A stretch of DNA of 64,000 nucleotides from an uncultured Candidatus Binatia bacterium (GTDB lineage: Bacteria; Desulfobacterota; Binatia; Bin18), in assembly GCA_965200965.1 (NCBI GenBank), contig OZ241744.1, positions 1,728,001 to 1,792,000 on the forward strand. Reading direction: 5' to 3'. The first letter of the stretch is position 1. Each line of letters starts with the position of its first letter. Below, piece after piece: positions 10,220-34,444 of the stretch. Below the pieces are notes generated by a model. It saw nothing but the letters and a program-made list of their open reading frames with translations, was not told where the DNA came from and did no database searches. The translations under genes were made by a program, and so were the position numbers.

Positions 10220-11218
10220 CTATGAGTCTATGGGCAGACTTTTATACGCCGCCCGCTCCTCCAGTACCCTGTCAATTCCAGTCATCCATTCCAAATCTCT
10301 TCCAATAACGAGTTCGGTCATTGCCGCGTGGTGGGTATTTTTCATGGAGATAGGCTTCGCCGCAAGGCCGTGTTTTCTCGCAAGCTCTCTCACTTCTTCT
10401 GCGTTGTCGTAGGTCATAATAAAATCGCCTTTTATTTTCTCACACCCCGCGAAAAGAGTTTCGTGATCTAATTCAAAATGCGTATACAGGCGGCTTCCCG
10501 CTTTCTTGCCGCCGGCCGTATAGGGAGGATCGATAAAAAAGACGACCTCTTTGTTATCTTTGTATTGTTCCAATGTCTGAAAGGCGTCTCTGTGCTCAAA
10601 AAACAACCTGTCCCGCGTCAGGTGAATCTCTCGCAGACGCTTGGCAAGCGTAGCAGGATACCAGCGTGAAAGAACGCCTTTCCCCGCTTCTCCGTTTTTC
10701 AGAAATCCGGCTCCCGACGCCAGAATCCCCCCGTGAAATGTCCGGTTTTTTATGATGGTTTGAAAAGCCCTCTCTTTCATCAATTTTCTCTTTGCATTGA
10801 TCTCGCTAAGAGCGTTCTCTTTCGACATTTCAAAATTGAGTATTCTCGAGGCGAGCCATTCTGCTTCCCCATCAATAAGGGTCTGCCACACGGCCGCGAT
10901 CTCCTCATCAAGCTCAACCATCAACGCGGCTTCAACCAGGTTTTCAAAAACTGCTGTTAAAGAAACGATACCGCCGCCGGCAAAAAGTTCAATCAAAAGA
11001 TTCGGACGCTTTGGTTGGCTGCACAGCCACTCCCGAAGACGAGGAACAAACCAAGTCTTACCGCCCGGATAGCGAAATGGACTTCGCTGGGGAACAGACG
11101 CAACATTCACCGCCTTCATACCCGGCAAGGGTCCGGCCACCTCAGGAGAAGTCTCAAGCTCAGCCAAAGGTTCCGCGGCTTCACCGAACAGCGATTTTTG
11201 CATGGAACTATGCCCCAA
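10220..11218 (-). CDS. Dam-like (D12 class) N6-adenine DNA methyltransferase
   Basis: SPFRYPGGK, ELFAGGG (SAM-binding), FIDPPY; AT-richer than flanks. Confidence 0.9.
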   Translation of the reverse strand: MGHSSMQKSLFGEAAEPLAELETSPEVAGPLPGMKAVNVASVPQRSPFRYPGGKTWFVPRLREWLCSQPKRPNLLIELFAGGGIVSLTAVFENLVEAALMVELDEEIAAVWQTLIDGEAEWLASRILNFEMSKENALSEINAKRKLMKERAFQTIIKNRTFHGGILASGAGFLKNGEAGKGVLSRWYPATLAKRLREIHLTRDRLFFEHRDAFQTLEQYKDNKEVVFFIDPPYTAGGKKAGSRLYTHFELDHETLFAGCEKIKGDFIMTYDNAEEVRELARKHGLAAKPISMKNTHHAAMTELVIGRDLEWMTGIDRVLEERAAYKSLPIDS

Positions 11219-12095
11219 GCGAGCCTTCGTTGGTTGGTGTAGAGGGCTGTTTTTGGTCCACCTTTGACTGAAGCAATTTCACAAAATTCTCAACCCTGCC
11301 AACCCTCGGCCGGGTTATCGTGTTCAAAGCCTCTGAGAATTTTGTATAGACGACCCTAGTTTTTGTCAAGTTATATCTGGGGGCTGCAAGGTCGAGAACA
11401 AGGGCATACACCAGCCAAGCCACTTCAGCCTCAGATTTTGCCACTTCTTCCAAAGCGGGGAGGGTATTGAAGAAAGAATGGTCTAAAGCGACCGCCATTT
11501 TCTTCTTCCAAGCGTGAAGAATTCCGCCCTTAAACATCAGTTGAGGGGCTAAGCGTTTTCGAGACGATGACAGAAAGTCAGGACGGGGAGAGTTGGGGTG
11601 ATCTGTCCAGTCCATTGAGGCATTCGCCCGGCAATCCGACATGTAATGCGAGAATGGCTCTCGTACATTTCCAGAAATGTAAACAGCCTGAATCTCTAAG
11701 GAGCCAAAGTCGTATACCCTTCCATTATGGTCATAAGCAGCTAACACCAAGTCAATATTCCCGGCAGACTTCCCATCAGAATCAGCCAGTCTTACCTCGG
11801 TCAACGGAGTCCAGGCAGTTCCTTCAGGGAAGAAGAAATCCGCAGCATCAGCGACGACACGCCAATTTTCACGAAATCGGATTGGACAGGTAATGACCGC
11901 GCTGTCCCGGTGGGAAATGCTACAGACCCCGAGGGGATCTTTCGCCTTGTCCTTGGTGCAAGCCGGAACCTTATTGTTGAATGGACAAAGTTTGTTCCCC
12001 CGATGGAGTATTGCCTGCGGACTAAAATCTGTCGGCAAATGGCCGAAAACCTCCGCTAAGGGCCGATTTTCCTTTTGCATCTTTCCTCTGTCCAC
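11208..12095 (-). CDS. NotI-family restriction endonuclease
   Basis: AEVFG followed by Cys cluster CPF...CTK...GVCS...TCPIRF; PD-(D/E)xK-like GNIDLV...LEIQAVYISGN; overlaps the MTase start. Confidence 0.82.
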   Translation of the reverse strand: MDRGKMQKENRPLAEVFGHLPTDFSPQAILHRGNKLCPFNNKVPACTKDKAKDPLGVCSISHRDSAVITCPIRFRENWRVVADAADFFFPEGTAWTPLTEVRLADSDGKSAGNIDLVLAAYDHNGRVYDFGSLEIQAVYISGNVREPFSHYMSDCRANASMDWTDHPNSPRPDFLSSSRKRLAPQLMFKGGILHAWKKKMAVALDHSFFNTLPALEEVAKSEAEVAWLVYALVLDLAAPRYNLTKTRVVYTKFSEALNTITRPRVGRVENFVKLLQSKVDQKQPSTPTNEGSLGA

Positions 12096-16154: not shown

Positions 16155-16184
16155 GCCGGATTACGCTTCGCTCATCCGCTCTAC
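16155..16184 (-). repeat. GTAG-type REP palindrome overlapping the ParA-like gene stop
   Basis: minus strand GTAG-AG-CGGATGAGC-GAA-GCGTAATCCG-GC, near-identical to the REPs at 20576 and 22695. Confidence 0.75.
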
Positions 16185-17177
16185 CCTCTCGAGAATCTTC
16201 CGCGCCAGCAGCTCGAAATCCCGCCGTGCATCAGTCGCAGCCGCGGCATGGCTGCCAATCGCGCCGTCAGCCGAAGTCAGATGAAAAATGGGCTTGCGCG
16301 CTTCCTGCGCCAGTGGCACGAGGCTGCGGTAGTGCCTGACGGTAGCCAGGGCGTGTTCTCCATCCTGGTGCGGCGTCTCGGGATACGGACCGCAGCTATC
16401 CCCCAACAGGCTGCGGGCGTATTCCCGCGGCATGCGATTGACCCACTTGTCATACGCTCTGACGGGGCGGTCCAGGCGCACGCTGTGCTGTTGCACCACA
16501 TAGCCGATGGGCCGCATTGTTCCGTCCGGCAGCAGAAAGTCCGGTTGCTGCCAGTTATCCTTTCGTTTTTCCCAGTCCCCCCGCCAGCGGTTGAGGGTCG
16601 GGCCGAGATTGCGCAGACCCTGGAGTGAGAACAGGTCCGCGCCCAGCGGAACAACGATGTAGTCGGTTGCGATCAAGGCCGAGCGATTAATCGCGCCCAG
16701 ATTGGGGCCGACATCGGCCAGGATGACATCGGCCTGCATCTGCTCAGCCCCGGCCTGCATGACGGTCGAGAAGGCGGTCAAAATGCGGAAGGGACGGTGG
16801 AGGAGGGTAGAGCCCAAGGCGTTGGGCCATTCCGCGGACAGGGTATCTTCAAAACCGGCCAGGGCCAGGTCGCCCCGTATCAGGTACAGATCGGGGGGGG
16901 CGACCGGCGTGAGCTGCGGCGGCTTGAGGTCGCCCACTTTCGTCAGCGGTAAGACACAGCGCAAAATGGTGTTCGCAGACGTGTCGTCGTCTGTGTCCCA
17001 GAGTGTTTCCAGATGCTCTTCATCCAGAAAAGCGGCAGTGAGGTTCGCCTGCGGGTCAAGGTCACAGGCCAGCACCCGATGCCCCATGTCGGACAGCATC
17101 CAGGCCAGATGATAGACCAGCGATGTTTTACCTACGCCCCCCTTGTTGTTGAAAAAAGTCAGGACAGGCGCGGTCAT
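16161..17177 (-). CDS. ParA/MinD-like (SIMIBI) ATPase, orphan type
   Basis: Deviant Walker A NNKGGVGKT, DLDPQANLT, DVGPNLG; 4-nt overlap with upstream gene; no parB. Confidence 0.88.
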   Translation of the reverse strand: MTAPVLTFFNNKGGVGKTSLVYHLAWMLSDMGHRVLACDLDPQANLTAAFLDEEHLETLWDTDDDTSANTILRCVLPLTKVGDLKPPQLTPVAPPDLYLIRGDLALAGFEDTLSAEWPNALGSTLLHRPFRILTAFSTVMQAGAEQMQADVILADVGPNLGAINRSALIATDYIVVPLGADLFSLQGLRNLGPTLNRWRGDWEKRKDNWQQPDFLLPDGTMRPIGYVVQQHSVRLDRPVRAYDKWVNRMPREYARSLLGDSCGPYPETPHQDGEHALATVRHYRSLVPLAQEARKPIFHLTSADGAIGSHAAAATDARRDFELLARKILERVERMSEA

Positions 17178-18391
17178 TGTGCCAGCCTCCCGGCGCGTAT
17201 CGTTATCCGCACAAAGTTGGGAGAAACATCAAACTCAGGTTCTGCGTGTCCCGCGGCCGCCAGGCGCTGCCTGGCCAGGGATATGCCAATGCCAAAACGC
17301 TGAACAAACCCGAGGGTTTTCATGGCGTCTGCCAGGTTGGGGTTGCGATAATCGACTACTCCCGGCTCCCCGAACCGCTCAGCCGTTACCACTCCGAACG
17401 CGCCGCCGGGACTCATTACTTCGATACGGTCATTGAACCAGTAGACATGCACCGGCGCGTTGGTGGCTTCGTATGTCCTGTGCATCAGCGCGTTACGCAC
17501 GAACTGCCGCAAGGCTTCCAGGGGGTAGTGCGCGGTGCGGTGTTCAACAGGGCCGCTTGTGACATCGACTGCCACGCGATTATGCGCTGTGAGTTTTTCT
17601 TCGAGCTGGCGAAGCAGGTCTGGAAGCGCGCCGCGTATCTCTTGGGCATCAAGTATGTCATCGGCATGGCTCGTCCCGTGTATCCTGAGAAATTGTACAT
17701 ACGCGCCCGGCAGAAAATCCTGCGGGCTTTTGCCGATCGCCAGCAGGCCCAGCACGGTCGCGGTGGGCTGGTCGGCAGCAACGATCATTTTTGTCGCGGC
17801 CAGTTGCTCGTTGAGACTGCGGGCATTGGCGGCCAGCATCTCGTCGGAAAATGCCCGGACCAGGTATTCGTTCGTGAACTGGGTCAGGTTGAGGTCTGCC
17901 AGACCGGCCGGAGGAACAGGCTGGATGTCAAAGGGACGGTCGCCAGACCGCCGTTTTTCGTTGAGTATCCTTTCATCCTGTGCCGTGGCGATACCGCGGC
18001 GCGAGCCAGTGCGGATACAGATAGCGCCTTTGCAGCGCACCGGCGGTGAGTCGGAGGGTTCCACCACAACAAGCGCAAGCTCCTTGCCGTGCAGCCGGCG
18101 CTTTTCCACGCTGAGCGAGGGCGGGGGCAGGATCGTGCCGTCGGTTTTCATGTCGGCCAACTGCCGGAGCAACTGGTCAGTCACAGACAGCCCGCACGAG
18201 GTGCCATTGTCTCGTACCCCGATGAACACAAAACCGGGCGCTCTGTGGTCGGGCAAGTCATTGGCAAAGGCGCAGATGGCTTGTCTGATCCTTGAAGCGA
18301 CGCGCTCGGAGAACGCCTCCTTGAACTCGACGCGGTCGGCTTCTCCAGCCGTGATGATCTCCAGCACCTCGGTATCGGTGAACTGCCGCAT
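17174..18391 (-). CDS. AlbA_2 (Schlafen-like) domain + HATPase_c_4 protein
   Basis: EADRVEFKE...ICAFAND...FIGVRDNG; YPLEALRQFVRNALMHRTYE...DRIEVMSPG...RNPNL...GIGI. Confidence 0.88.
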   Translation of the reverse strand: MRQFTDTEVLEIITAGEADRVEFKEAFSERVASRIRQAICAFANDLPDHRAPGFVFIGVRDNGTSCGLSVTDQLLRQLADMKTDGTILPPPSLSVEKRRLHGKELALVVVEPSDSPPVRCKGAICIRTGSRRGIATAQDERILNEKRRSGDRPFDIQPVPPAGLADLNLTQFTNEYLVRAFSDEMLAANARSLNEQLAATKMIVAADQPTATVLGLLAIGKSPQDFLPGAYVQFLRIHGTSHADDILDAQEIRGALPDLLRQLEEKLTAHNRVAVDVTSGPVEHRTAHYPLEALRQFVRNALMHRTYEATNAPVHVYWFNDRIEVMSPGGAFGVVTAERFGEPGVVDYRNPNLADAMKTLGFVQRFGIGISLARQRLAAAGHAEPEFDVSPNFVRITIRAGRLAQ

Positions 18392-18645
18392 GGCCGGCTC
18401 CGTTCATTCTGAGCCAGATGACGCCCGGGGGCTGGCCCGCCCGTCCTTTTCGCCAATCACGGGCAGCCCGGAATCACACCAATCACGGTTCAGACCGCCC
18501 TCGGTCGTCCTGACACGCGCCTTGACCGCGGCCCCAACTCCTCAACCGCCGTCCCGGGGGGCTCCTCGGGGGAGCTCAGAGCAAAGAAAGTGAGTGGGCA
18601 TGTCCTGTCTTTGAGCGGGGTCAACTGTGAACGGTATCACCGGGA

Positions 18646-18936
18646 TTATTCTGCTACTGTGACGTGTTCGTTTGCCCAGCGGGCGGGGAACGTCATGAAG
18701 CCCATAGCGGTGGTGAAAAATTCACCGGGGAGTTGGACGGTGATGGTCTCGCCGTCTATCTTCCTGATGATGCCACGAATGGAGCCGGCGGGCTTGTTGA
18801 CATGCCGGGCTTGGACAAACCCTGAAGACGGGCCGTTTTGGGTGGTAAGCGTCACCAGGTATTCGTCAGGAAACGCGCCGGTGCCGATGTGGCAGGGGAT
18901 ATTGACCGATTGTTCAAGCTGAAAGACCTTTGTCAC
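18646..18936 (-). CDS. hypothetical small beta-rich protein
   Basis: 96-aa ORF, GTG start behind GAAGGAGG RBS. Confidence 0.6.
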   Translation of the reverse strand: MTKVFQLEQSVNIPCHIGTGAFPDEYLVTLTTQNGPSSGFVQARHVNKPAGSIRGIIRKIDGETITVQLPGEFFTTAMGFMTFPARWANEHVTVAE

Positions 18937-18999
18937 TGTTTTGCCCTCCTTCGCAATGGCCCCGGGTGTATCGCGTCGGTGCTGGTCACTGCAAGCCCT

Positions 19000-19030
19000 G
19001 TAGGTCGGCTGAGCCGGCGGGCGTGAGCCG
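19000..19030 (+). repeat. GTAG-type REP (single, truncated)
   Basis: GTAG-GT-CGGCTGAGC-CGGCGG-GCGTGAGCCG. Confidence 0.65.
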
Positions 19031-19072
19031 CTGGATCGCTCTGATCGTGGGGTTGTGCATGGGGTTCCTTCC
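19031..19072 (-). pseudogene. relic 5' end of a Type IIG R-M gene
   Basis: AGGAACCCC-ATG-MHNPTIRAIQ matches AGGAACTCC-ATG-MPLSTLRAIQ at 26364; runs straight into a REP. Confidence 0.55.
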
Positions 19073-19076
19073 TCAA

Positions 19077-20534
19077 CTACTCCACTTTAAACTTCTGATT
19101 TCCCTGTTGCGCCTTCAATGCCTCATACTTGGCAAAATCCAGAGAGGCTTCTCTGTCGTAAAAGGCTATCTTATTGGCCCATCCCCGATTGTGGTACGCC
19201 GCAGCAAAGTCAGGCTTTAGCGAAATGGCGCGGTCGTAGTCCGCAAGCGCCGCTTCGAGTTGCCCAAGATTTCTCTTGACATTGCCCCTACCGGAGTACG
19301 CTTCGGCGTAATTAGGGTCTAACCTGATAGCCTCCTCGTAGTCCGCAAGGGCTTCTGCGTTGCGTCCGAGTTCCTTCTTGACGTTGCCCCGGTTGTTATA
19401 CGCCGCAGCGTAACCGGGATTTAACCTAATAGCCTCATCGTAGTCCGCCAAGGCGGATTCATACTCCTTAAGTGCGAACCTGACAGCACCCCGGCTGTTG
19501 TACGCATCATAGTAATCAGGTTTTAGTTCAATAGCCTTATTGTAGTCCGCCAAGGCGGAGGCGTAATCCTTCTCGCTAAAGAACTTAATAACACCACGGT
19601 TGTAGTACGCTACGGCGTAATTAGGGTCTACCCTAATAGCCTCCTCGTAATCCGCAAGGGCTTCTGAGTACTCCTCCAAGAAGATTCTAAAATCGCCTCT
19701 CTGACAATAATTGTCACTTTGCACATTCTCCCGCATTGGTTCTCGACGCTTCTCCTTTCTGATTTCCGCGGTGTAGTAATGCGCTGCGAGTTCAGCGTTG
19801 TAGTCGGATTCGGCTGTGTTTCTCTCAAGAAAACCCGCCGAGTCGGGAAACAGCGTTTTCTCCGAAATGCCCACCCTGTCCAACTCTTGCAAGATCGTTT
19901 TCTGGTGCTCTCTGGAGACGATGATCTCCCGCTCGATCATACTTTCTTCTATTTCGGGTGCTCCAAACAGGAAGACGGACTGCTGTACCGTGAGGCGTTG
20001 GCTATCCAGGACAGGATTGCCGACAGCGGGCCGCCACATATGCCATTGATCATCTCGCTCAAAGAATTCCTTGAGTTCCTGCTTCAAGTCTTCTTGGGTG
20101 GTGACTTCTTGAATCGTGCCAGGCTGCTGGACGTTGACCACAAAGACCTTACCGTCTGTTTCCCCATCAGTTTTGCAGGCAAACCAGAGGGCAACCAGAG
20201 GATTGTAGGTAAAGTCTATCAGCCCGGTCGCTACCCCGTTGTGTTGGAGGTGGGCCATGCACTCCAGAGGCGTCAGATTGCTGTAGGCGTTGGGGTAGCG
20301 GAGATTCACTTCGTAAATAATCTGGTGGATGTAGCCTCTGAACAGGGCAAACACTAACCCAGGATGTTTCAACGGGCGCTTTCGCAGGCGGCGCAGGGCG
20401 CTGCTCTGCACCTTCCAGCTTTCATCCTTTTGGCCGCGGTAAATGTAGCGGCGCTCTTCGCCAGAGGCGGCAAGCTTGTCTATGACTGCGATGTAATCCG
20501 CCAAGCTGGTTATGGATTTTTGATCGTCGCTCAT
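19077..20534 (-). CDS. FRG-domain protein fused to 6 TPR repeats
   Basis: YIYRGQ...LQHNGVATGLIDFTYNPLVALWFAC...QQSVFL; 34-aa TPR units. Confidence 0.9.
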   Translation of the reverse strand: MSDDQKSITSLADYIAVIDKLAASGEERRYIYRGQKDESWKVQSSALRRLRKRPLKHPGLVFALFRGYIHQIIYEVNLRYPNAYSNLTPLECMAHLQHNGVATGLIDFTYNPLVALWFACKTDGETDGKVFVVNVQQPGTIQEVTTQEDLKQELKEFFERDDQWHMWRPAVGNPVLDSQRLTVQQSVFLFGAPEIEESMIEREIIVSREHQKTILQELDRVGISEKTLFPDSAGFLERNTAESDYNAELAAHYYTAEIRKEKRREPMRENVQSDNYCQRGDFRIFLEEYSEALADYEEAIRVDPNYAVAYYNRGVIKFFSEKDYASALADYNKAIELKPDYYDAYNSRGAVRFALKEYESALADYDEAIRLNPGYAAAYNNRGNVKKELGRNAEALADYEEAIRLDPNYAEAYSGRGNVKRNLGQLEAALADYDRAISLKPDFAAAYHNRGWANKIAFYDREASLDFAKYEALKAQQGNQKFKVE

Positions 20535-20578
20535 ACGCTTCCCTCCACCGCCCTGATTTGCCCCTCGGTCAGCCCGCA
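20531..20578 (-). pseudogene. relic 3' end of a Type IIG R-M gene, TGA overlapping FRG ATG
   Basis: encodes CGLTEGQIRAVEGSV* versus YGLTEEEVRAVEGSRA* of the intact gene ending at 22756. Confidence 0.7.
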
Positions 20579-20640
20579 GGGCGGGTTAGCCGGCGGGCGT
20601 AACCCGCCATGTCGGATTACGCTTCGCTAAGCCGACCTAC
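20576..20640. repeat. inverted REP doublet (REPIN/BIME-like)
   Basis: gcagggcgggttagccggcgggcgtaacccgcc-at-gtcggattacgcttcgctaagccgacctac; terminal CTA is the TAG stop of the TPR gene. Confidence 0.8.
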
Positions 20641-21836
20641 GCGCTTTCCAATTCATTGATTTTTGCTTCTGCATCCCGCACGAATTCATTCTTCCCCTGC
20701 TGTTGCGCCAATGTCAGCGCGTGTTTAAAATCCGTCAAGGCGTCCGCAGTGCGCCCGAGTGCCTGCTTGGCCTCGCCCCGGTTGCTGTATGCCTCAGCAA
20801 AGTCACGCTCTAGTTTGATGGCTCGATCATAGTCCACCAAGGCGGAGGCGTACTCCTTAAGCTCTACCTTGGCATTGCCCCGGTTGTAGTACATCTCAGC
20901 CAAATCAGGCTTTAGCTCGATGGCGCGGTCATGGTCCGCAAGTGCCGCTTCGGATTGCCCAAGCTTTGCCTTGACATTGCCCCGGTTGCCGTACGCCTCA
21001 GCATAATCAGGCTTTAGCTCGATGGCGCGGTCATAGTCCGCAACGGCCTCCGCATCGCGCCCGAGTGCCTGCTTGGTGTTGCCCCGGTTGCTGTACGCCT
21101 CAACAAAGCCAGACTTTAGCTCAATGGCGCGGTCATAGTCCGCCAAGGCTTCCGCGTTGCGCCCGAGTGCCTGCTTGGCAGTACCCCGGTTGTAGTACGC
21201 CTCAACAAAGTCAGGCTTTAGCTCAATGGCGCGATCATAGTCCGCAAGCGCCGCTTCAGGTTGCCCAAGCTCTGCCTTGGCGTTGCCCCGGTTGCTGTAC
21301 GCCTCAGCGTCATTAGGCTTTAGGGCGATAGCGCGGTCATAGTCGACAAGCGCCGCTTCATACTCCTTAAGATCGAAATTGGCGACGCCCCGGTTGCTGT
21401 ACGCCTCAGCAAAGCCAGGCTTGAGCTCAATGGCACGGTCATAGTCCGCCAAGGCGGAGGCGTACTCCTTAAGCTTTACCTTGGCATTGCCCCGGTTGTT
21501 GTACGCATTAGCATAATCAGGCTTGAGCTCAATGGCGCGGTCATAGTCCGCCAAGGCGGAGGCGTACTCCTTAAGCGCTGCCTTGGCATTGCCCCGGTTG
21601 TTGTACACCTCAGCGTCATCAGGCTTTAGCTCGATAGCGCGGTCATAGTCCGCAAGCGCCGCTTCATACTCCTTAAGATCGGAATTGGCGACGCCCCGGT
21701 TGCTGTACGCATCAGCAAAGTCAGGCTCTAGCCTGATAGCCTCACCGTAGTCAGCAATGGCTTTCTCGTATTTGCCCAGCGCGACTCTGAAATTGCCTCT
21801 TTGAAAATAATTGTCGCTTAGCGCTTTCTTATTCAT
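20637..21836 (-). CDS. 11-TPR protein (C-terminal half of a split FRG-TPR paralogue)
   Basis: 11 highly similar 102-bp TPR units; ATG at 21836 preceded by GGAGG (9-nt spacing), overlapping the FRG stop (ATGAATAA). Confidence 0.8.
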   Translation of the reverse strand: MNKKALSDNYFQRGNFRVALGKYEKAIADYGEAIRLEPDFADAYSNRGVANSDLKEYEAALADYDRAIELKPDDAEVYNNRGNAKAALKEYASALADYDRAIELKPDYANAYNNRGNAKVKLKEYASALADYDRAIELKPGFAEAYSNRGVANFDLKEYEAALVDYDRAIALKPNDAEAYSNRGNAKAELGQPEAALADYDRAIELKPDFVEAYYNRGTAKQALGRNAEALADYDRAIELKSGFVEAYSNRGNTKQALGRDAEAVADYDRAIELKPDYAEAYGNRGNVKAKLGQSEAALADHDRAIELKPDLAEMYYNRGNAKVELKEYASALVDYDRAIKLERDFAEAYSNRGEAKQALGRTADALTDFKHALTLAQQQGKNEFVRDAEAKINELESA

Positions 21837-22653
21837 TGCCCTGGTCCTCCGCTTTTCTGATCTCCTCGGTGTAGTAATGCTCTGCGAGTTCAGCGTTGTA
21901 GACGGATTCGGCCGTGTTTCTCTCAAGAAAACCCGCCCAGTCGGGAAACAACGTTTTCTCCGAAATGCTCACCCTGTCCAACTCTTGCAAGATCGTTTTC
22001 TTGTGCTCTCTGGAGACGATGATCTCCCGCTCAAGCATACCTTTTTTTATTTCGGGTGCTCCAAACAGGAAGACGGACTGCTGCACCGTGAGGCGTTGGC
22101 TATCCAGGGCAGGATTGCCGATGACAGGTTGCCACAGATGCCATTGTTCATCGATCTCAAAAAACGTCTTGAGTTCCTGCCCCAAAGCTCTTTTGGTCGT
22201 GACTTCTTGAATCGTGTTGGGCTGGACGTTGACCACAAAGACCTTGCCGGCTGTCTCCCCAGCGGTTTCGCAGGCAAACCAGAGGGCAACCAGGGGACTG
22301 TAGGTAAAGTCTATCAGCCCGGTCGCTACCCTGTGGTGTTGGAGATGGGCCATGCACTCCAGGGGCGTCATCGGCTCGCTGTAGGTGTTGGGGTAGCGGA
22401 GTTGTACTTCGTCAATAATCTGGTGGATGTAGCCTCTGAACAGGTATGATATCGTCATCCCTTCATAGTTACGACTATAATCACGGCCGTATCCAGATTG
22501 TTCCAGGCGACGCAGGGCGCTGCTCTTGACCCCCCAGCTTTCATCCTTTTGTCCGCGGTAAATGTAGCGGCGCTCTTCGTCAGAGGCGGGAAGCCCGTTT
22601 ATGACTTCGATGTATTCCGCCAAGCTGGTTATGGATTTTTGATCGTCGCTCAT
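21829..22653 (-). CDS. FRG-domain protein (N-terminal half of split paralogue)
   Basis: Near-identical to the N-terminus of 19077..20534 (MSDDQKSITSLA, YIYRGQKDESW, IDFTYSPLVALWFAC). Confidence 0.85.
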   Translation of the reverse strand: MSDDQKSITSLAEYIEVINGLPASDEERRYIYRGQKDESWGVKSSALRRLEQSGYGRDYSRNYEGMTISYLFRGYIHQIIDEVQLRYPNTYSEPMTPLECMAHLQHHRVATGLIDFTYSPLVALWFACETAGETAGKVFVVNVQPNTIQEVTTKRALGQELKTFFEIDEQWHLWQPVIGNPALDSQRLTVQQSVFLFGAPEIKKGMLEREIIVSREHKKTILQELDRVSISEKTLFPDWAGFLERNTAESVYNAELAEHYYTEEIRKAEDQGNE

Positions 22654-22697
22654 CGGCTTCTCTCCATCGTCCTGATTTGCTCCTTGATCAGCCCGTA
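22650..22697 (-). pseudogene. second relic 3' end of a Type IIG R-M gene, TGA overlapping FRG ATG
   Basis: encodes YGLIKEQIRTMERSR*. Confidence 0.6.
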
Positions 22698-22759
22698 GGG
22701 CGGGTTAGCCGTCAGGCGTAACCCGCCATGTCGGATTACGCTTCGCTAATCCGACCTAC
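22695..22759. repeat. inverted REP doublet (REPIN/BIME-like)
   Basis: GTAGGGCGGGTTAGC-CGTCAG-GCGTAACCCGCC-AT-GTCGGATTACGC-TTC-GCTAATCCGAC-CTAC; supplies the TAG stop of the IIG gene. Confidence 0.82.
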
Positions 22760-25700
22760 GCCCGACTGCCCTCCACCGCCCGCACTTCCTCCTCCGTCAA
22801 CCCATACAGCCCATACACCAGCCGGTCAATCTCGGCTTCCTGCTCGGCGGTGTCTGCCGAGGGGTCGGCGGCTTTGGCCTTGAGGATGCGGTCAAGCAGC
22901 CGGATGGACGGGCGCTGCTTGGCGGCTGATATCTCAGGGACGGGCAGGCGCTCTACGGCAAACCTTTTCCATCGAGTGACACCCATTCCAGAAGTCAGGC
23001 CCGTACTTTTCATAAACCACGTCATCAGATTAGAATTGAGGACAGCGCACAGATATTTGATTGCTCGCCCGGACATCATAAATGCGGTATCAGCGCAGAA
23101 CATTTCGCTCGCATCATAAGCGAATCGCCCTTGCTCAGTCAGGTCCATCCAGAACAGCTTTTCTTTGGTAAACTCCTTGTAAGCTCCCGAACTGTAATAA
23201 TCTACTTGCAGTTGCCACCATTGATAAGGCACCTGCCCCGTCTTTGGATTAGCTCCGCCCCGCCGCTTCAAAAGCTGCTTCTTGTGCGGTAACAGATGTT
23301 TTCGCACTGCGGGATATTCATTTTCTGCGATGTTGGAATGGCTGTATATCAGCCACACCCCCGCCCACTCTGCCCGATACCGCCGAATGTCCCGGCCCCG
23401 CAGCACCGGCTTGATGATGTCCGCGGAAGCCGGGTCTTCGTCAATCAACGCCTGCCTGGTGGTGTCGTCTATAATGAAGGCCGTGTTGTAGCCGGTCTTG
23501 ATGCCATAGTTGATCTTCACATCCCAGTCTTTCAGCGGCGTCCCTTTCGCCTCCATCTTATCCATGACGGACCATTCCAGGGCCGACAACGCACCCCACG
23601 GCTTTTCGCCTTGCGGGCGCAACACCCCCCACAGGCTTTCGGCCGGCGGAAAATCCTTGTCGGGCAAGCGGTCCATGTCTACCGCTCTGCCGGCTTCTCC
23701 GCTTTTGCCCTGCCGCGCAATCAGAACGCTGGTATCAACAATAGCGTTTTCAAAAACGTCTTTGCCCATTTCCAGCAGGCGCAGCGGTGTGTGTTGCTCG
23801 GAGAACCAGCGCCGCAGGGGCTTGCCGTATTCGGCCTTCAGCCAACTGTTTGAGGTGATGTAGGACAAGAGGCCGCGTTGCGGTGTCAGCAGTTGGCCGC
23901 CTCTCTCATAGAAAAGCTGATAGATGTCGCCGCTGCGGGCGAAGGTGGCAAAGCCGGCGTCTTTATAGAGTTTGCCCAGCTCGCCGGCGTTCTTCTGTAA
24001 CTGAACATACGGCGGATTGCCGATCACCACATCAAAGCCCTCAGCCACACCGAACATATACTCAGCGTCAAACCAGCCGGCGCGGGCGTTCTGGTCGTAG
24101 GGGTCCCACTGCGCGATCTTGTCGGCGTCATCCGCGGGAAACCCAAGGCTTTCCAATGCCTGCGCCAACGACTTCCGTAACTGCTTGTCTTTTCTCTTGT
24201 ACTCCAGCTTTTTCCGGCGCGTGGTGGCGTGAAAATGCCGCTCGCGGTTGTCCAGTAACTGACGCTCCACCTGCTGCGCTTTTGCGCTCGTCAGCATCCG
24301 CTCGCCCTTGAGACCCAGAAGCGTATCCGCAGCAATAAAGCGCGTTTCCAGGTTGGGCAGCGGCTTGAGGCCGAAATTGTCCGCGGCGGGGTCGGGCTCC
24401 TGCTCAATGGCCAGCGAGATGAAAAAACGCAGCTTGGCGATCTGGCAGGCGACCGGCTGAATGTCTACACCGAAGATGCTGTTCTGAATCAGGTACAGCT
24501 TGCGGCCAAAGTCGGAATCGCGGTAGCGTTCAAAAGTCTGGCTGATCTCGGTCAACTCGGCCTCGCGGTCGCCCTGGTCCCGGGTATCAAAGGCGGCTTG
24601 GGCCCGGTCCCGGGCGATCGCTTTTTGCAGCCCCTCCCAACGGGTGTTGTCAGGGTCAAGCCGGCGCAAGGCCAGGGTAAGCTTGTGCAGCACGCCCATT
24701 GGAAACGCCCCGGAGCCAACCGCGGGGTCCAGCACCTTGAGCCCGGCTATGGCCCGGACAACCGCGTCGGTCTCAGCCGCGTCAAACAACGCGCTGGCGT
24801 CGCTGAAGGCATCGGCATAGTCCAGCAGATAACGAAGGCGTTCCTGCCAGAACACGCGGTCGTTGTCGCTCGGCTGGCAGCGTTCGGCCAGGGCGGCGAC
24901 AAGGGCCTCATCAACCATGTAGTCCACCACCGGCCGCGGGGTGTAGTAAGAGCCGGTCTGCTTGCGGGCCGTGTCGCGGGTTTCGGGGTTGTAGGCGGCC
25001 AGCAGGTTTTCAAACACCTTGCCGAGCAGCTCAGGGTCAAGGGCGACTTCCTGCTCTATGGGCGTGTTCTCCTCAACCGTGAACTTGTAACTGTTGAACA
25101 GCGGAATAAGGCCGTGGTCATCAAAGAACAGCCGGTTGGGGATGGAATAGTCCCGCCGGTGGCGGGGGTTGTCGGTAAAACAGTCAATCCGCCAGCCCTG
25201 CTCCGAGGTGGCTTCTTCGCTGTCGAGGCAGTCAAACAGCCCGCCGTTGATGAACGGCGTCCGGCTGAACAGGGCCAGCAGTGCGTCGGGGTTGCGGAGT
25301 TCGGAGCGGTAGCGGTACAGCGAAAAATTGCGGTGGGTGGTACGCTTCCCGCTGCTGAAGCCGCGCTTGGTCCTCTCGGTGTTCAGGGTGGCGAAAAACA
25401 GGTTCTGGAGCACCGCCCGGTACCAGGAATCGCCGGTGTCCCGGTCGTAGTCGCGGAGCAGGGCCGCGACCTCGCTTTCGTTGAACAGCTCGTCCGCTAC
25501 CAGGCCCTTTTCCTTGATGAACCAGACAAACAACAGCCGGGTAATGAGACGGATGATGTGTTCTTCGGGCGACAGGGTTCTGGCCGGCGAGGTGTCACCA
25601 GATCGTCCTTTGGGAAACCGGGCCTCTGTGACGCCACGGCTGAACCAGTCGAACAACTGCCGGTAGAAGCGGCGGTTCAGTTCCCGCGTGTCCAGGGTGT

Positions 25701-26364
25701 CGAGCCAGGCGTTGAGCAGCCCGTCAAAATTGTGGGGGATATGGTGGCTGGTCATCCAGTCCAGCAGATTCTCCAGCGACAACCCGGCCAGGATGTCGAG
25801 GTGGGCACGGTGCGGGTCGGTGGGGTTGATTTCACGGATCAGCGACACGCGGCCCAGCACATCACGGCTGTGGTCGAGCGTGTTGCGTCGGCGATGGACA
25901 AAGGCCAGGCTGAGCCGGTCGTCAGAGCTGCGGAACAGGACCACCACAGGTGCGGGGAAACGCTTGTTGATCTCGCGGGTGAAAGCGGCGTAGCGGCTCC
26001 GGGGGTAGCTGGCCTGTTTCAAGGCAACGGCAAAGAACAGAAAGCTCTGCTGCCGGCCCTGCTCAAAGGCCGCCAGCCCGGAATCCAGCCGCGGGGGCTG
26101 GCTGGCGGCGATCTCATCGCTTGTCACCTGAAACAGCAGCCGGACCGAGGCGGCGTTCTCACACAAGGCCCGCTCTGAGTCTGTGCCCGGCCGCTCAGCC
26201 GGAAAAGCCCGCAGGAAGTCGTCAACAGCCCCGGTCTGCTCGCTCAGGCGGCGGTCACTGCGGTAGCCGAGGGCGGCCAGCAGCTCGGTGGCCGCGGCGG
26301 CAAAGTCCGGCCCGGCAGCGTTCTTCAAGGCGGTCTGGATGGCGCGGAGGGTGCTCAAGGGCAT
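22756..26364 (-). CDS. Type IIG / Eco57I-like N6-adenine R-M enzyme with TaqI-C-like specificity domain
   Basis: PFINGGLF, ELLGKVFENLL, GSYYTP, LDPAVGSGAF, VIGNPPY, GIKTG, EIDRLVYGLYGLT; start MPLSTL after RBS. Confidence 0.92.
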   Translation of the reverse strand: MPLSTLRAIQTALKNAAGPDFAAAATELLAALGYRSDRRLSEQTGAVDDFLRAFPAERPGTDSERALCENAASVRLLFQVTSDEIAASQPPRLDSGLAAFEQGRQQSFLFFAVALKQASYPRSRYAAFTREINKRFPAPVVVLFRSSDDRLSLAFVHRRRNTLDHSRDVLGRVSLIREINPTDPHRAHLDILAGLSLENLLDWMTSHHIPHNFDGLLNAWLDTLDTRELNRRFYRQLFDWFSRGVTEARFPKGRSGDTSPARTLSPEEHIIRLITRLLFVWFIKEKGLVADELFNESEVAALLRDYDRDTGDSWYRAVLQNLFFATLNTERTKRGFSSGKRTTHRNFSLYRYRSELRNPDALLALFSRTPFINGGLFDCLDSEEATSEQGWRIDCFTDNPRHRRDYSIPNRLFFDDHGLIPLFNSYKFTVEENTPIEQEVALDPELLGKVFENLLAAYNPETRDTARKQTGSYYTPRPVVDYMVDEALVAALAERCQPSDNDRVFWQERLRYLLDYADAFSDASALFDAAETDAVVRAIAGLKVLDPAVGSGAFPMGVLHKLTLALRRLDPDNTRWEGLQKAIARDRAQAAFDTRDQGDREAELTEISQTFERYRDSDFGRKLYLIQNSIFGVDIQPVACQIAKLRFFISLAIEQEPDPAADNFGLKPLPNLETRFIAADTLLGLKGERMLTSAKAQQVERQLLDNRERHFHATTRRKKLEYKRKDKQLRKSLAQALESLGFPADDADKIAQWDPYDQNARAGWFDAEYMFGVAEGFDVVIGNPPYVQLQKNAGELGKLYKDAGFATFARSGDIYQLFYERGGQLLTPQRGLLSYITSNSWLKAEYGKPLRRWFSEQHTPLRLLEMGKDVFENAIVDTSVLIARQGKSGEAGRAVDMDRLPDKDFPPAESLWGVLRPQGEKPWGALSALEWSVMDKMEAKGTPLKDWDVKINYGIKTGYNTAFIIDDTTRQALIDEDPASADIIKPVLRGRDIRRYRAEWAGVWLIYSHSNIAENEYPAVRKHLLPHKKQLLKRRGGANPKTGQVPYQWWQLQVDYYSSGAYKEFTKEKLFWMDLTEQGRFAYDASEMFCADTAFMMSGRAIKYLCAVLNSNLMTWFMKSTGLTSGMGVTRWKRFAVERLPVPEISAAKQRPSIRLLDRILKAKAADPSADTAEQEAEIDRLVYGLYGLTEEEVRAVEGSRA

Positions 26365-26392
26365 GGAGTTCCTGTCCTGCGTGCGGGCCAAG

Positions 26393-29300
26393 TCAGGCGG
26401 CACGGATGACGAGCCAGCTGACAAGTTCAAAGTCATCGTCGGGCGTGCCGGCACTGGAAGCCACCGGCAGCTTGAAATCGCGGTTGCTGCGCAGCTGGGC
26501 GACCTGGGTGGCGTGGTTCGCCTCGTCGATGTGGGCAAGCACCGCCTGCACCAGCCGGTCGTACCGGGCCATGTTCCGGCCGTGGCGGGTTTCGCGGTCA
26601 AACTGGTCGCACAGCCGTTGCAGCGGCTTGGTCCTGCCCTCTGCCGCGGCCTCAAATACGTCGAGCGCCTGCCGGGCGTTGGTGCAGCCGTGGCGGATGT
26701 CGCCGGTCTCGTGGATGTAGACCGCATAAAAGGGATGGATCGGGCTGGCCGCTTTTTCGCGCCTGTCCGTGCCGGCCCCACGCTGGCGCAGAAAAAATAT
26801 CGCGCCGGGTTGGGCCGGGCCGTCCGTGACCGCGTACACCCCGGCCGGCGTGGCTTCGAGTTCGGCCCGGTTTTTTTCGAGATAGCGCAGGAGCTGGGCA
26901 AAGAAATAATCCAGGGTGAAATCGCTCATCACCACGCCGTCGTCCAGCTCGTCGAGGTCCAGCACCTCTTCCTGCAACTGGCGGAGCTGCCGGTCACGGA
27001 AGTTCAACTCCATCTGGGCCTGCGCAAAGGTGAAGGTGTTCAGCGGGTCGTCATCACCGCTGGCCGCGGCGTCGGCCAGCGCCATGCGTGCCTCAACCCG
27101 GCTTTGCAGGCGGAGATAGACATCCATGTCTTTGGTCGGCCAGTAGTTAATCATCCGCACCCTTGTGTTGCGGCTGCCGATGCGCTCAATCCGCCCAAAG
27201 CGCTGGATGAGGCGGACCGGATTCCAGTGAATGTCATAGTTCAGCACGGTGTCGCAGTCCTGGAGGTTCTGCCCCTCTGAAATGCAGTCGGTGGCGATCA
27301 GCAGGTCAATGTCGCCCTCAACCCCCGCGGCCCGGCCCCGCGCCCGGGGGGCAAAGTTGCTCAGGATAGCGTTGAAATTGTTGTCGCCGTAACTGGTATG
27401 GGTCACATCGCCCGACACCATCGCCATGTGCAGCCCCAGTTCATCGGCCAGCCCGCGCAACTCCCGGTAGAGATATTCGGCCGTGTCCCTGAAGGTAGTG
27501 AACACCAGCAGCTTGCGGTTTGGCCGGCCGTCGCGGTCGGTCGGCGGGCAGGCCACCTTGTGGCGCAGCTCGCTCCGCATCTCGTTGAGCTTGCCGTCCC
27601 GCTCCGGCGTGATGGTCTTCAACTCGTCCAGGACCGCGCTCAGGGTGTGCCGGTCGCGGCGGACATCGGCCTGCCAGCGGGGCAGGTCCAGCTCCCGCAG
27701 GTGATACGGGCGGCGCGCCCGATTGACCAGGAACTCCTCATCGTCTTCGTCAGGCTCGGGCAGGATATCGCCCGGCATCTCCGCGCCGCGGTGTTCGTGG
27801 CCATGCTGCTCGTAGTCGGCGATCCTGGCCAGCAAGCTGTCCATTTTGTCAATGGTGCGGCCCAGGGTTTCCGCCAGAGCATAGGCCGAACTCTCCAGCC
27901 GCTTCAGAAAGTTCGTCCGCATCATGCCGAGCAGGAAGCGCTCGCGGTCTTCCTGATTGAAGTTTCTCTCCCGCTTTTCCCGGACCAGGACCTGCTTTGC
28001 CTTCTGGCTCACCAGGTACTCGGAGGGCCTGTAGATGGACAGGGCGAATTGGCCGATCTGCTCGGACAGGGCTGTGTACGACAGCGCCCCGTCCAGGTCG
28101 GTCGGCGGGTAGCGGTTGTCCGGCTGCCGGGTTGTGGGAAACTCGCCGATGGTCTGCATTTCTTCGGCGTAGAAGGTCTTGATCTGCCGCCGCGAGCGGG
28201 CGATGGACACGCCGCCGAGCAACTGGAAAAAATCGGCCCCGAGTTTTTCCAGCAGGTGCGCCTTATCTTTTGGCCCGGCCTTGTCCTGCCAGTCGCTGAA
28301 CGCCTTCTGGGCCCGGCCCAGCACCGTGCCGATATGGCTGATGCCCAGACTGTCGCGGAACACATCCTCGCGCTTTTCGGTCATAAGATAGATCTGGTTG
28401 CGCAGGTCAAGAAGCGAGGTGTTGACCGGGGTGGCCGACAGCATCAGCACCCTGGTTTGCGCCCCGTGCCGGATGACTTCTTCCAGCAGCCGTGCGTAGC
28501 GGCTGCGGCCCACCCGCCCGCTGGCGTCGGGCCGGGGCCTGGTGTCGTTGCGGAAGTTGTGCGACTCGTCAATCACCACCAGATCAAAATTGCTCCAGTT
28601 GAAGCGTGCCAGGTCAATATCCCCGGCCCTGCCGGTGTCGCGGGACAGGTCGGTGTGCGACAGCAGGCTGTAGCCGAAACGGTCGGCGAGAAAGGGGTTG
28701 TCGGTCTGGGCGTGGACAGCCGGATACAAGGCCCAGTTGTCACGCAGTTTTTTTGGGCATAGCACCAGCACCCGTTCGTTGCGCAGTTCAAAGAACTTGA
28801 TGACCGCCAGCGCGGTATAGGTCTTCCCCAAGCCCACGCTGTCGGCCAGGATGCAGCCCTTGTGGCGCAGCAGACGGGCGATGACGCTCTTGGCCCCGTC
28901 TTTCTGGAAGCCGTACAGCGCCTTCCAGATGGCGGTGTCGTACAGGTGGGTGTCGGACAGGTCGCGCTCGCCGGCCTGTCTGGCTTCCAGCTCGTCGCCG
29001 AACAGCTCAAACAGGGTCTTGTAGTAGACGAGTTCCGGCGCGTGGTCCTTGCCGAGGCGGGCCAGCGCGTCCAGTACCTCGTGTTTCACGTCGCTGGTCA
29101 GCGCGGTATCGGCCCAGATAGCGTCAAACCAGTGCCGCAGGTCGGCGCGTATCTCTTCGGAGGCGCTTGCCAGGTTGATTTCCATGTTGGTGCCGGGGCC
29201 GCAGCCCAGCCCCCTCCGGGTGAAATTCGAGCTGCCCACCACCGCCACACCCCCGGCGGCCCCAGACTCGGCGAGATACATCTTGCCGTGCAGAAAACTG

Positions 29301-29647
29301 GACTGACTGATGGAGCGGATTTTGACCCGCCCGCTCTGGACCCAGGCGGTGCAGTCCCGGGCGAGGTGTGTCTGCCGCAAGGTGTGGCTGGGCGACAACC
29401 GGCCTTCGGTCAGGCAGAAGGCTTTGGGGTCTTTTGGCCCGGGGTCCACTTCGCCGACCGAGGCCGGGTCGCCGAACAGAAACCGCACATCTTTGATGCC
29501 GCTCAGTTCGTGCTGGAGTGCCTCATAGCCGTAAATGCTGAAATAGGCCGAAACCAGGCGAAAGACTGTGGCGTCCGCCAGACCCTGGCGCAGGTAGTCA
29601 ACGACCGGGCGGGAGTGGTTGTCCAGAATGTGTTCGTATCTCTGCAT
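26393..29647 (-). CDS. PLD-nuclease + SNF2-family helicase
   Basis: HGKMY...GSSNFT (PLD), ADSVGLGKT, DESHNFRN, LSATP, SEGQNLQD, WNPVRLIQRFGRIER. Confidence 0.92.
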   Translation of the reverse strand: MQRYEHILDNHSRPVVDYLRQGLADATVFRLVSAYFSIYGYEALQHELSGIKDVRFLFGDPASVGEVDPGPKDPKAFCLTEGRLSPSHTLRQTHLARDCTAWVQSGRVKIRSISQSSFLHGKMYLAESGAAGGVAVVGSSNFTRRGLGCGPGTNMEINLASASEEIRADLRHWFDAIWADTALTSDVKHEVLDALARLGKDHAPELVYYKTLFELFGDELEARQAGERDLSDTHLYDTAIWKALYGFQKDGAKSVIARLLRHKGCILADSVGLGKTYTALAVIKFFELRNERVLVLCPKKLRDNWALYPAVHAQTDNPFLADRFGYSLLSHTDLSRDTGRAGDIDLARFNWSNFDLVVIDESHNFRNDTRPRPDASGRVGRSRYARLLEEVIRHGAQTRVLMLSATPVNTSLLDLRNQIYLMTEKREDVFRDSLGISHIGTVLGRAQKAFSDWQDKAGPKDKAHLLEKLGADFFQLLGGVSIARSRRQIKTFYAEEMQTIGEFPTTRQPDNRYPPTDLDGALSYTALSEQIGQFALSIYRPSEYLVSQKAKQVLVREKRERNFNQEDRERFLLGMMRTNFLKRLESSAYALAETLGRTIDKMDSLLARIADYEQHGHEHRGAEMPGDILPEPDEDDEEFLVNRARRPYHLRELDLPRWQADVRRDRHTLSAVLDELKTITPERDGKLNEMRSELRHKVACPPTDRDGRPNRKLLVFTTFRDTAEYLYRELRGLADELGLHMAMVSGDVTHTSYGDNNFNAILSNFAPRARGRAAGVEGDIDLLIATDCISEGQNLQDCDTVLNYDIHWNPVRLIQRFGRIERIGSRNTRVRMINYWPTKDMDVYLRLQSRVEARMALADAAASGDDDPLNTFTFAQAQMELNFRDRQLRQLQEEVLDLDELDDGVVMSDFTLDYFFAQLLRYLEKNRAELEATPAGVYAVTDGPAQPGAIFFLRQRGAGTDRREKAASPIHPFYAVYIHETGDIRHGCTNARQALDVFEAAAEGRTKPLQRLCDQFDRETRHGRNMARYDRLVQAVLAHIDEANHATQVAQLRSNRDFKLPVASSAGTPDDDFELVSWLVIRAA

Positions 29648-34000: not shown

Positions 34001-34444
34001 CCCGCCCCGGCCGGCGGCCCGCTCGGCGTCCTGGAAAACCCGGCCGGCGGCTCCTTCCAGAGCGGCCTCAGCGTGCTGTCGGGCTGGGTGTGTGAGGCCA
34101 CGGTGGTTGAGGTTGAACTCAACGGCGACAGCGCCCACCGGCTGGCGGCAGCCTATGGGACCGGCCGGGCCGATACGGCCGACGCTTGCGGCAACGCCGG
34201 CAGCAACGGCTTTGGGCTGCTGTTCAACTGGAACCTGCTCGGCGATGGGGTCCACACCGTGCGGGTGCTGGCCGACGGGGTGGAGTTTGGCCGGGCGACG
34301 TTCACCGTGACGACCTTCGGGGAAGAGTTCGTCCGGGAGGCCCGCGGGCGGGTGGTCGTGGCCGACTTTCCGTCCCCGGGCGAGACCGCCATGCTGGCTT
34401 GGCAGGAAGCCACCCAGACCTTTGTGATTACGCACCTGGAGTAA
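31019..34444 (+). CDS. large secreted protein: right-handed beta-helix with tandem repeats, PGGPGN linker, duplicated C-terminal domain
   Basis: Signal peptide (ARA-Q), VTTLTD..PGSLR N-motif, ATVSGNTITG repeats, two copies of GVLENP..SG(I/L)..SGWVC..FGLLFNWNLLGDG..DFPSPG. Confidence 0.85.
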   Translation: MARKVEKTERYLNTRHAGLTGLLLLCGLLLTLAPTARAQTATSTPAATLTVTTLTDDAKTPAPGSLRYQVNRAKAMSTSTTIIFDPALSGGTITPTRRLELSGNIHLLAQDAAGMSIGMTLDGSRLPAGNDVLTISSNTATVSGFDIVNFADAGIAVSGSWRCPAKARVTISDNVLIVATSTAVGIEVGSGTRRCSAVTISENRIAADTSEPESRGAGIYITVEGFSARAAATVSGNTITGAGIRFENAGDGGTNEMTATVSGNTITGAGIRFENTGGRGIYRLKATVSGNTITGAGIHFEDDARRGVFPYDYDPGHRRLKATVSGNTITGAGIHFEDYLRGGLTATVSGNTTTGAGIHFENKYGGTNATVSGNTTTGIRFEGSLFSGWVTATVSGNTTTSTGIHFVNRSGSGSNRLKATVSANTITGTGISYENRGGGGGQRITATVSSNTITGTGTGIAFEDRAGGGGHRITATVSGNTITGTGTGIAYDNRGGGGGHTVTATVSGNTITGTGTGIAYRNRSGGGGQRMTATVSSNTITGARYGIRITNGGGGGGNRLTVRGSDNTIIGSGMYGIQLVGGNGGDKRLTVRGSGNTVIGSGTADIFALTSRWSSTAVSGRLENTIFNTKSVVGGSFTVHRYQAATLPSGGLTGGYRNQDGTTEVVTIPTIEETYLSAPAQVAPRQAVERAVAVVSRQATSTDFGATPLVVRLIPRDADGRVVSGVADHPVRVCLPLPAGLSDAPTPQLAWLDGPVWHLLSSERSEGQICADFRGFPLFLGSTGVPDTPDNPGGPGNPGGGTTNPGGPGNPAPPQHQAADAEATARGTESAGSSAPLAGHPPLVGVLENPRPASSQSGIGLISGWVCAGAVVELEVDGTPLGAAASGTSRADVAATGACGGRADVGFGLLFNWNLLGDGQHTIRALADGVEFSQATFTVTTLGEEFVHEGSGTALVADFPSPGEQARLVWQAGLQNFMLAPLSAPAARPAGGLAPAPAGGPLGVLENPAGGSFQSGLSVLSGWVCEATVVEVELNGDSAHRLAAAYGTGRADTADACGNAGSNGFGLLFNWNLLGDGVHTVRVLADGVEFGRATFTVTTFGEEFVREARGRVVVADFPSPGETAMLAWQEATQTFVITHLE
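31712..32645 (+). repeat. intragenic array of 12 near-identical units (gccaccgtgtccggtaatactatcaccgg...ggcatc) with variable in-frame spacers
   Basis: Units start at about 31712, 31793, 31874, 31982, 32054, 32123, 32192, 32273, 32354, 32441, 32528, 32615; all periods are multiples of 3. Confidence 0.9.

Follow-up and report, generated by a model that had tools for sequence, protein, structure and literature searches.

RAYT-less REP hairpins as probable join points in an array of likely defence genes that follows a Type IIG restriction-modification gene and varies between strains

We analyzed a stretch of 64,000 nucleotides (nt) from an uncultured Candidatus Binatia bacterium (GTDB lineage Bacteria; Desulfobacterota; Binatia; Bin18), comprising positions 1,728,001 to 1,792,000 of the forward strand of contig OZ241744.1 in GenBank assembly GCA_965200965.1 and here called the window. 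Within it, a cluster of genes behind a Type IIG restriction-modification (R-M) gene is punctuated by hairpins of the repetitive extragenic palindromic (REP) type. We consider it fairly probable that REP hairpins, without a REP-associated tyrosine transposase (RAYT) in the genome, act as frequent but non-exclusive join points for duplications and gene swaps in this cluster of likely defence genes, which varies between strains. The blocks by which strains differ have their bounds at or near REPs. Throughout, G000 is the source genome of the window, other G numbers are relatives, L numbers are individual loci or contigs, and X numbers are sequencing runs; coordinates are those of the window unless another source is named. 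The features of the array are as follows.

16155..16184, minus strand: single decayed REP unit A, 30 nt, GTAG plus bulged hairpin; contains the stop codon TAA (16161-16163) of the ParA-like gene
16161..17177, minus strand: ParA-like ATPase, 338 amino acids (aa), Pfam AAA_31
17174..18391, minus strand: protein with SLFN_AlbA_2 and HATPase_c_4 domains (Pfam), 405 aa
18646..18936, minus strand: orf96, 96 aa, without a Pfam or PADLOC match
19000..19032, plus strand: single decayed REP unit B, 33 nt
19031..19073, minus strand: stub like the IIG ribosome-binding site and first 10 codons, ending at the REP hairpin foot; 1 of 3000 random windows matches as well
19077..20534, minus strand: fused FRG-TPR gene, 485 aa, PADLOC PDC-S15-like
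20535..20575, minus strand: tail stub, a 41-nt duplicate of the IIG 3' tail, identical at 30/41 positions to the IIG tail and at 34/41 to the G007 tail; starts at the CTGC end of the doublet
20576..20640: head-to-head REP doublet, 65 nt, with unit B on the plus strand (20576-20608) and unit A on the minus strand (20611-20640); its GTAG supplies the TAG of the TPR gene
20637..21836, minus strand: TPR protein, 399 aa, with its stop from the REP GTAG
21829..22653, minus strand: FRG-domain protein, 274 aa, PADLOC PDC-S15-like
22654..22694, minus strand: tail stub, a 41-nt duplicate of the IIG 3' tail, 28/41 identical; starts at the CTAC of the doublet
22695..22759: head-to-head REP doublet, 65 nt, with unit B on the plus strand (22695-22727) and unit A on the minus strand (22730-22759); its GTAG supplies the TAG of the IIG gene
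22756..26364, minus strand: Type IIG restriction-methyltransferase, 1202 aa (Pfam and PADLOC)
26393..29647, minus strand: PLD and SNF2 helicase protein, partner of the IIG gene (Pfam and PADLOC)

Followed in the direction of the genes, the array runs from the IIG tail through a doublet, a tail stub, the FRG and TPR genes, the second doublet, a second tail stub, the FRG-TPR fusion, the IIG start stub and a REP to orf96, the AlbA and ParA genes, and a last REP. The two FRG/TPR blocks are paralogues with 87% nucleotide identity, and in a 5-sequence tree they are sister copies with respect to the G007 copy (support 0.96). The FRG blocks become homologous to each other 2 nt upstream of the GTAG of the doublet at 20576..20640. 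Because FRG and TPR are split in G007, G002, and G005, the fusion is likely the derived form. Four junctions at this locus lie at most 2 nt from a REP end: that between doublet and tail stub, the start of the FRG-block homology, that between the IIG start stub and a hairpin foot, and, in run X3, that between orf96 and a hairpin foot. At the 22694/22695 joint, the TAC of the CTAC occupies the place of the tail's tyrosine codon. None of 20000 random windows matched as well as the tail stubs. A literature search, judged on titles and abstract openings with few subscription journals covered, returned no description of tail-stub/REP cassettes at R-M genes.

The first-pass annotation of this DNA had placed four GTAG-type palindromes at gene boundaries, and all four are there, although the outer end at 20576 reads GCAG. 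It had also correctly seen that three of them contain the stop codon of the upstream gene (TAG for the IIG and TPR genes, TAA for the ParA-like gene) and that the window holds no others, as nothing else scored above 10 bits. Every gene from 16161 to 29647 has the same orientation, as it had said of the REP-bounded blocks, but these blocks do not each carry different cargo, since two of them are one FRG/TPR module present twice. In folding comparisons, the doublet at 22695 reached z=-5.7 (a level that 0/200 shuffles attained) and that at 20576 z=-3.0; the two single units, at z=-1.1 and -1.7, are decayed.

The window palindromes are RAYT-cognate REPs. Unit A of the 22695-22759 doublet is identical over its 30 nt to the sequence that flanks RAYT genes in G001 and G006, and in G001, G006, and G024 inverted copies of unit A stand on either side of a 171-aa RAYT. 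This protein matches Escherichia coli TnpA-REP (PDB 4ER8) with E=3e-44, which makes RAYT group 2 (subclass 2.2) a candidate placement for it. None of 27 other RAYT-like loci that we fetched is flanked by this REP. The first-pass annotation had proposed looking in the genome for a RAYT gene with this REP on its flanks; such a gene is present in those three relatives and not in the source genome (99.3% complete, single contig), where PF01797, NF047646, the cognate protein, and local tblastn returned none; none was found in G007 either.

A profile scan of the genome with a reversed-genome control gave 54 units in 47 clusters, from which 4 weak clusters were dropped (3 inside genes, 1 without GTAG) to leave 43 sites. 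The family shows a 5' GTAG with a hairpin, is multi-copy and extragenic, and is biased to the 3' ends of genes, as is usual for GTAG REPs. Convergent genes flank 15/43 sites and divergent genes 3/43, compared with 251/1920 and 432/1920 of all intergenic regions. The stop codon of a flanking gene lies inside the REP at 11/43 sites, so that this overlap is not special to the locus; the supply of stop codons by the REP GTAG is indeed given as a known REP trait in the accessible text of PMC3733652. Matches to the REP pattern number 22 in G000 and 3-84 in each of 7 congeners searched. Inverted doublets occur twice in the window and at 49/60 sampled sites of G005 and G006, the samples being the first 30 of 65 and the first 30 of 84 matches, respectively, with 1.5-kb flanks.

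Several side observations concern these and other repeats. The RAYT-REP unit stands in three different gene contexts at L075, L077, and L078, beside toxin-antitoxin-like genes, which would suggest that it moves as a unit; at L075 the REP end is itself repeated in tandem, in 18-nt copies. At the G005 and G006 loci L201-L260, many doublets lie inside an outer element of ~125 nt with inverted CTAG-like ends, apparently a MITE (a miniature transposable element with inverted repeats) carrying the REP doublet. An IS110-family element breaks REP unit B at one identical base in two G005 loci, L235 (~1460) and L240 (~1560). A second, non-GTAG inverted-repeat family of ~45-55 nt is found at window positions 8270, 34570, 39516, 39747, 42627, and 54256, with 26 matches in the genome.

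We compared contigs of close strains with the locus by alignment. Runs X1-X4 are labelled sponge metagenome; X5 gave fragments, and runs with small shares (X5-X9) were left out of habitat and strain claims. In X1, positions 18991-20540, which hold the 19000 REP and the FRG-TPR gene, are swapped for 709 other bases; the left break, at 18990, is 9 nt outside the REP, and the right one, at 20541, falls where the conserved tail stub ends, with 35 nt between it and the doublet. A single X3 contig, of depth 5.2, connects the orf96 end (18656) with the hairpin B foot (20606), a backward jump of 1951 that would fit a circle, a tandem duplication, or an altered gene order alike. X13 has other sequence in place of the IIG segment 22933-23347, and with it of the likely target-recognition region; depth over the FRG copies is uneven in this run and gives no copy number. 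An X13 contig end that resembles a 16155-to-22732 joint was set aside, being most simply the 16155 REP mapping onto its copy at 22730.

Among the relatives, G007 is ~90% identical genome-wide. There the 22695-22759 doublet is missing at the same junction, and the IIG tail passes directly into FRG, with one tail and no REP. Its array has a unit containing a REP repeated three times, with novel joints inside the AlbA, TPR, and IIG genes that are ~260 nt from the nearest REP or have no REP near. Between G000 and G007 the IIG gene is least conserved in a stretch (28/80 identical) that is likely the target-recognition region. G006 shows a doublet-gene-doublet arrangement at a place where G005 has a single doublet. 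Also in G007, at L031:6226-11429, a 116-160-aa gene without a Pfam match is present in four copies, amplified together with AlbA-start/TPR fusions. The expectation that cargo would break exactly at the GTAG/CTAC across strains did not hold throughout: the X3 joint lies at a hairpin foot, the X1 breaks lie 9 and 35 nt from a REP, and G007 has joints inside genes.

Genome-wide, intergenic regions with a REP differed from G007 in 19/27 cases, compared with 369/1012 of the others, in a comparison that covered contig 1 of G007 (G000 1.545-3.515 Mb). Outside the window, 16/39 REP sites stand beside a PADLOC match, compared with 9/70 random intergenic sites of G007 (p=0.002), and R-M or methyltransferase genes neighbour 8/39 REP sites and 2/70 random ones. 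Matches were counted at E<=1e-10, the background came from G007 contig 1 and not from G000, and housekeeping look-alikes were included for REP and background sites alike; an ankyrin protein and a tandem paralogue that neighbour REPs fell outside the PADLOC scan. REPs in G000 are about three times enriched beside defence-like genes, an enrichment for which the first-pass annotation had proposed a test; 23/39 sites are not beside PADLOC-matching genes.

The layout of gene tail, cargo, REP, and tail stub also recurs elsewhere: at a G007 type III-like methyltransferase, where the cargo is a TIR gene, at G005 L260, and at the 83-kb site of G000, with 0.65-1.5 kb of cargo between tail and REP-stub at these three loci. 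Tandem arrangements were noted as well. In L050:4880-12549 of G007, Type III methyltransferase copies of 1052 and 1057 aa stand in tandem with a third of which a 77-residue start is fused to a REP, and a REP follows each; the G000 counterpart is one copy whose stop is the GTAG. At G000 2994557-2996537 (L068), tandem CCDC90-like genes have a REP before each, and are tandem in G007 also. One end of G000 3365871-3373640 has CRISPR-like repeats, of a sequence unlike that of the G007 ones, and the other end a Cas6 gene with a REP.

In the reading that we favour, of REPs as frequent but not exclusive join points, a module would enter or be duplicated through one crossover in the conserved IIG tail and another at a REP end, so that tail, cargo, REP doublet, and tail stub would follow one another in that order. 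The break at the REP might arise when the host processes the hairpin, when REPs recombine with each other, or through nicking by the RAYT of an ancestor in which the gene was still present. The remaining joins may use short microhomology or TPR repeats, and REPs would for that reason be one route among several. Joins away from REPs, such as the AlbA-start/TPR and AlbA-start/IIG-tail fusions of G007 and the X1 break at 20541, fit this lack of exclusivity. The original proposal that REPs serve as joining points can be kept for the several junctions on REP ends and for the strain blocks bounded at or near them, but not for the junctions that fall within genes or where the IIG tail stub stops.

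A number of findings weigh against this reading. At 22695, the change that separates G000 from G007 could have gone in either direction. G005 and G006 have the IIG tail stub, FRG, and TPR right behind the upstream flank gene (thioredoxin-reductase-like by eye) and no REP. An IIG-type gene with FRG and TPR-like genes after it, but no copy of this REP, is also present in the unrelated contig L273. At genome sites S20, S29, S30, S37, and S39, REPs have come or gone while the cargo stayed the same. REP sites are clustered, so the p values overstate the significance. Finally, 7/201 REP GTAG-side ends start a duplication, which exceeds the all-intergenic background (0.6%, p=2e-4) but not that of variable regions (2.1%, p=0.13), and REPs may therefore only share unstable DNA. 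A first version of this flank test mostly returned REPs within larger tandem units and was repeated with criteria for donor and boundary. The 7 do not include the stubs of the window itself.

Most of these points, namely the stub and FRG without a REP in relatives, the cargo-free gains and losses, and the variable-region background, would be expected if REPs were bystanders that insert at gene 3' ends, at times with a duplication of 20-60 nt of the target, and that are retained in accessory DNA, while the array is shuffled through IIG-tail homology, TPR repeats, and microhomology. The classic 3'-end distribution, the short flanking duplications around G005 and G006 doublets, and the right break of X1 at the tail-stub end point the same way. 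However, neither the four junctions on REP ends at one locus nor the cargo between tail and REP-stub at three others are simple target duplications, and we regard this explanation as unlikely, if one to be taken seriously. Alternatively, RAYT and REP could form a homology-assisted gene-capture machine, in which the transposase nicks a REP doublet, joins its CTAC ends to the tail of the upstream (here R-M) gene, and excises or integrates cassettes of tail stub, cargo, and REP, stacking them into defence arrays without an integrase; the enzyme would since have been lost from G000, and the array would be a relic still reshuffled by host recombination. The recurrent layout, found twice at R-M genes, speaks for capture, and the backward joint of X3 fits a circle as well as it fits the other two arrangements. 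According to the accessible text of PMC3333891 and PMC8266576, TnpA-REP in vitro cuts single-stranded DNA at C|T on either side of a REP and recombines bacterial interspersed mosaic elements (BIMEs), gene capture being proposed there and not shown; the E. coli enzyme cuts up to a distance from the REP, and the capture of flanking genes is the suggestion of the authors (PMC3333891). Yet no RAYT was found in G000 or G007, joints are offset by 0-4 nt without a constant C|T, and the cleanest REP-to-REP case carries a luciferase-like monooxygenase and not a defence gene. In the RAYT-bearing G006, moreover, only 2/30 sampled perfect (young) REP copies have a PADLOC-matching neighbour, one of them an oxidoreductase, and many of the sampled copies ride in the larger MITE-like element. 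We hold capture to be rather doubtful.

It is hardly credible that the palindromes are attC sites mistaken for REPs, in an integron or a cluster of attC sites lacking an integron integrase (CALIN). Palindromes that separate co-oriented genes do recall such arrays, and the first-pass annotation had inferred an attC-like dedicated cassette system with its recombinase in trans. The palindrome is identical to a RAYT-flanking REP, however, and the window gave no Rfam match at gathering thresholds (no dedicated attC finder was run). No integron integrase scored above the cut-off; there were two tyrosine recombinases only, at <=78 bits against a cut-off of 265. Cargo changes also have no fixed break base, with breaks at 18990, 20541, and 20606/18656 and, in G007, inside genes. 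With RAYT and integrase both absent, a duplicated module, a stub-FRG module without REPs in relatives, and many cargo-free REP gains and losses, the idea of an attC-like dedicated cassette system is not supported.

As for the genes themselves, the cluster likely consists of anti-phage defence genes, a function that rests on similarity to Pfam and PADLOC models (for PADLOC, candidate models). Frg is described as a potential antiviral NADase of the ADP-ribosyltransferase superfamily in the accessible part of a review (PMC9503650). The locus has the form of an IIG R-M hotspot, with a fused endonuclease-methyltransferase gene and variable downstream cargo between conserved flanks. The orf96 orthologue in G007 and G006 stands directly upstream of a 198-200-aa gene, which in G007 is dCTP-deaminase-like. 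A scan for promoters and terminators gave near-chance levels and was uninformative on co-transcription. Elsewhere in the window, a NotI-family endonuclease and D12 methyltransferase pair of low GC (10220-12095) is absent at the same place in G005 and G004, and a 1141-aa open reading frame (31019-34444) contains ~12 repeats of 69-108 nt and has no Pfam match at 1e-5.

The locus bears on what REPs and their domesticated transposases do for the host, and it offers a countable signature, that of gene tail, cargo, REP doublet, and tail stub. Together with natural strain variants and with congeners that have or lack the enzyme, this signature makes REP-driven turnover of defence islands testable. 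If capture were true, domesticated RAYTs would gain a host function, with the repeated tail stub as its genomic signature. On present evidence, this is a known RAYT/REP-type repeat in a known hot-spot role, and not an integron.

That REPs can be join points for duplications is old knowledge. REP sequences were reportedly described as join points of tandem duplications by Shyamala, Schneider and Ames in 1990. Like those duplications, ours have a junction at a REP; unlike them, they involve small (1.5-2 kb) accessory modules at the tail of a restriction gene in natural strains. REP clusters are also recombination hot spots according to what is accessible of PMC11708052. The REP/BIME system of E. 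coli, whose TnpA-REP is placed in RAYT group 2, subclass 2.2 (PDB 4ER8; accessible text of PMC3333891, PMC8266576, and PMC6006769), shares with ours the GTAG and long bulged hairpin, the head-to-head heterodimers, and a RAYT bracketed by inverted REPs. Persistence after RAYT loss is a further likeness, and so are stop codons from the GTAG (accessible text of PMC3733652). In contrast to E. coli, there are just 43 sites here, the RAYT stands in three different gene contexts in three relatives, the R-M and defence neighbour bias is strong (in G000), and gene-tail stubs are duplicated after doublets. Integron cassette arrays (attC/IntI), which include defence cassettes according to the accessible part of 10.1101/2024.07.02.601719, resemble the locus in their co-oriented accessory genes with single-stranded DNA hairpins between them and in blocks that differ between strains, but ours has no IntI or attC, its blocks are multi-gene or duplicated, and its junctions are heterogeneous. 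Lastly, TnpA-REP has been proposed to diversify prochlorosin genes, for which the authors, in the part of the source available, state that there is no strong evidence for or against causation (10.1101/2020.03.09.984088); there, too, a RAYT system is proposed to diversify neighbouring genes, albeit one that, from the same partial text, belongs to a different RAYT group.

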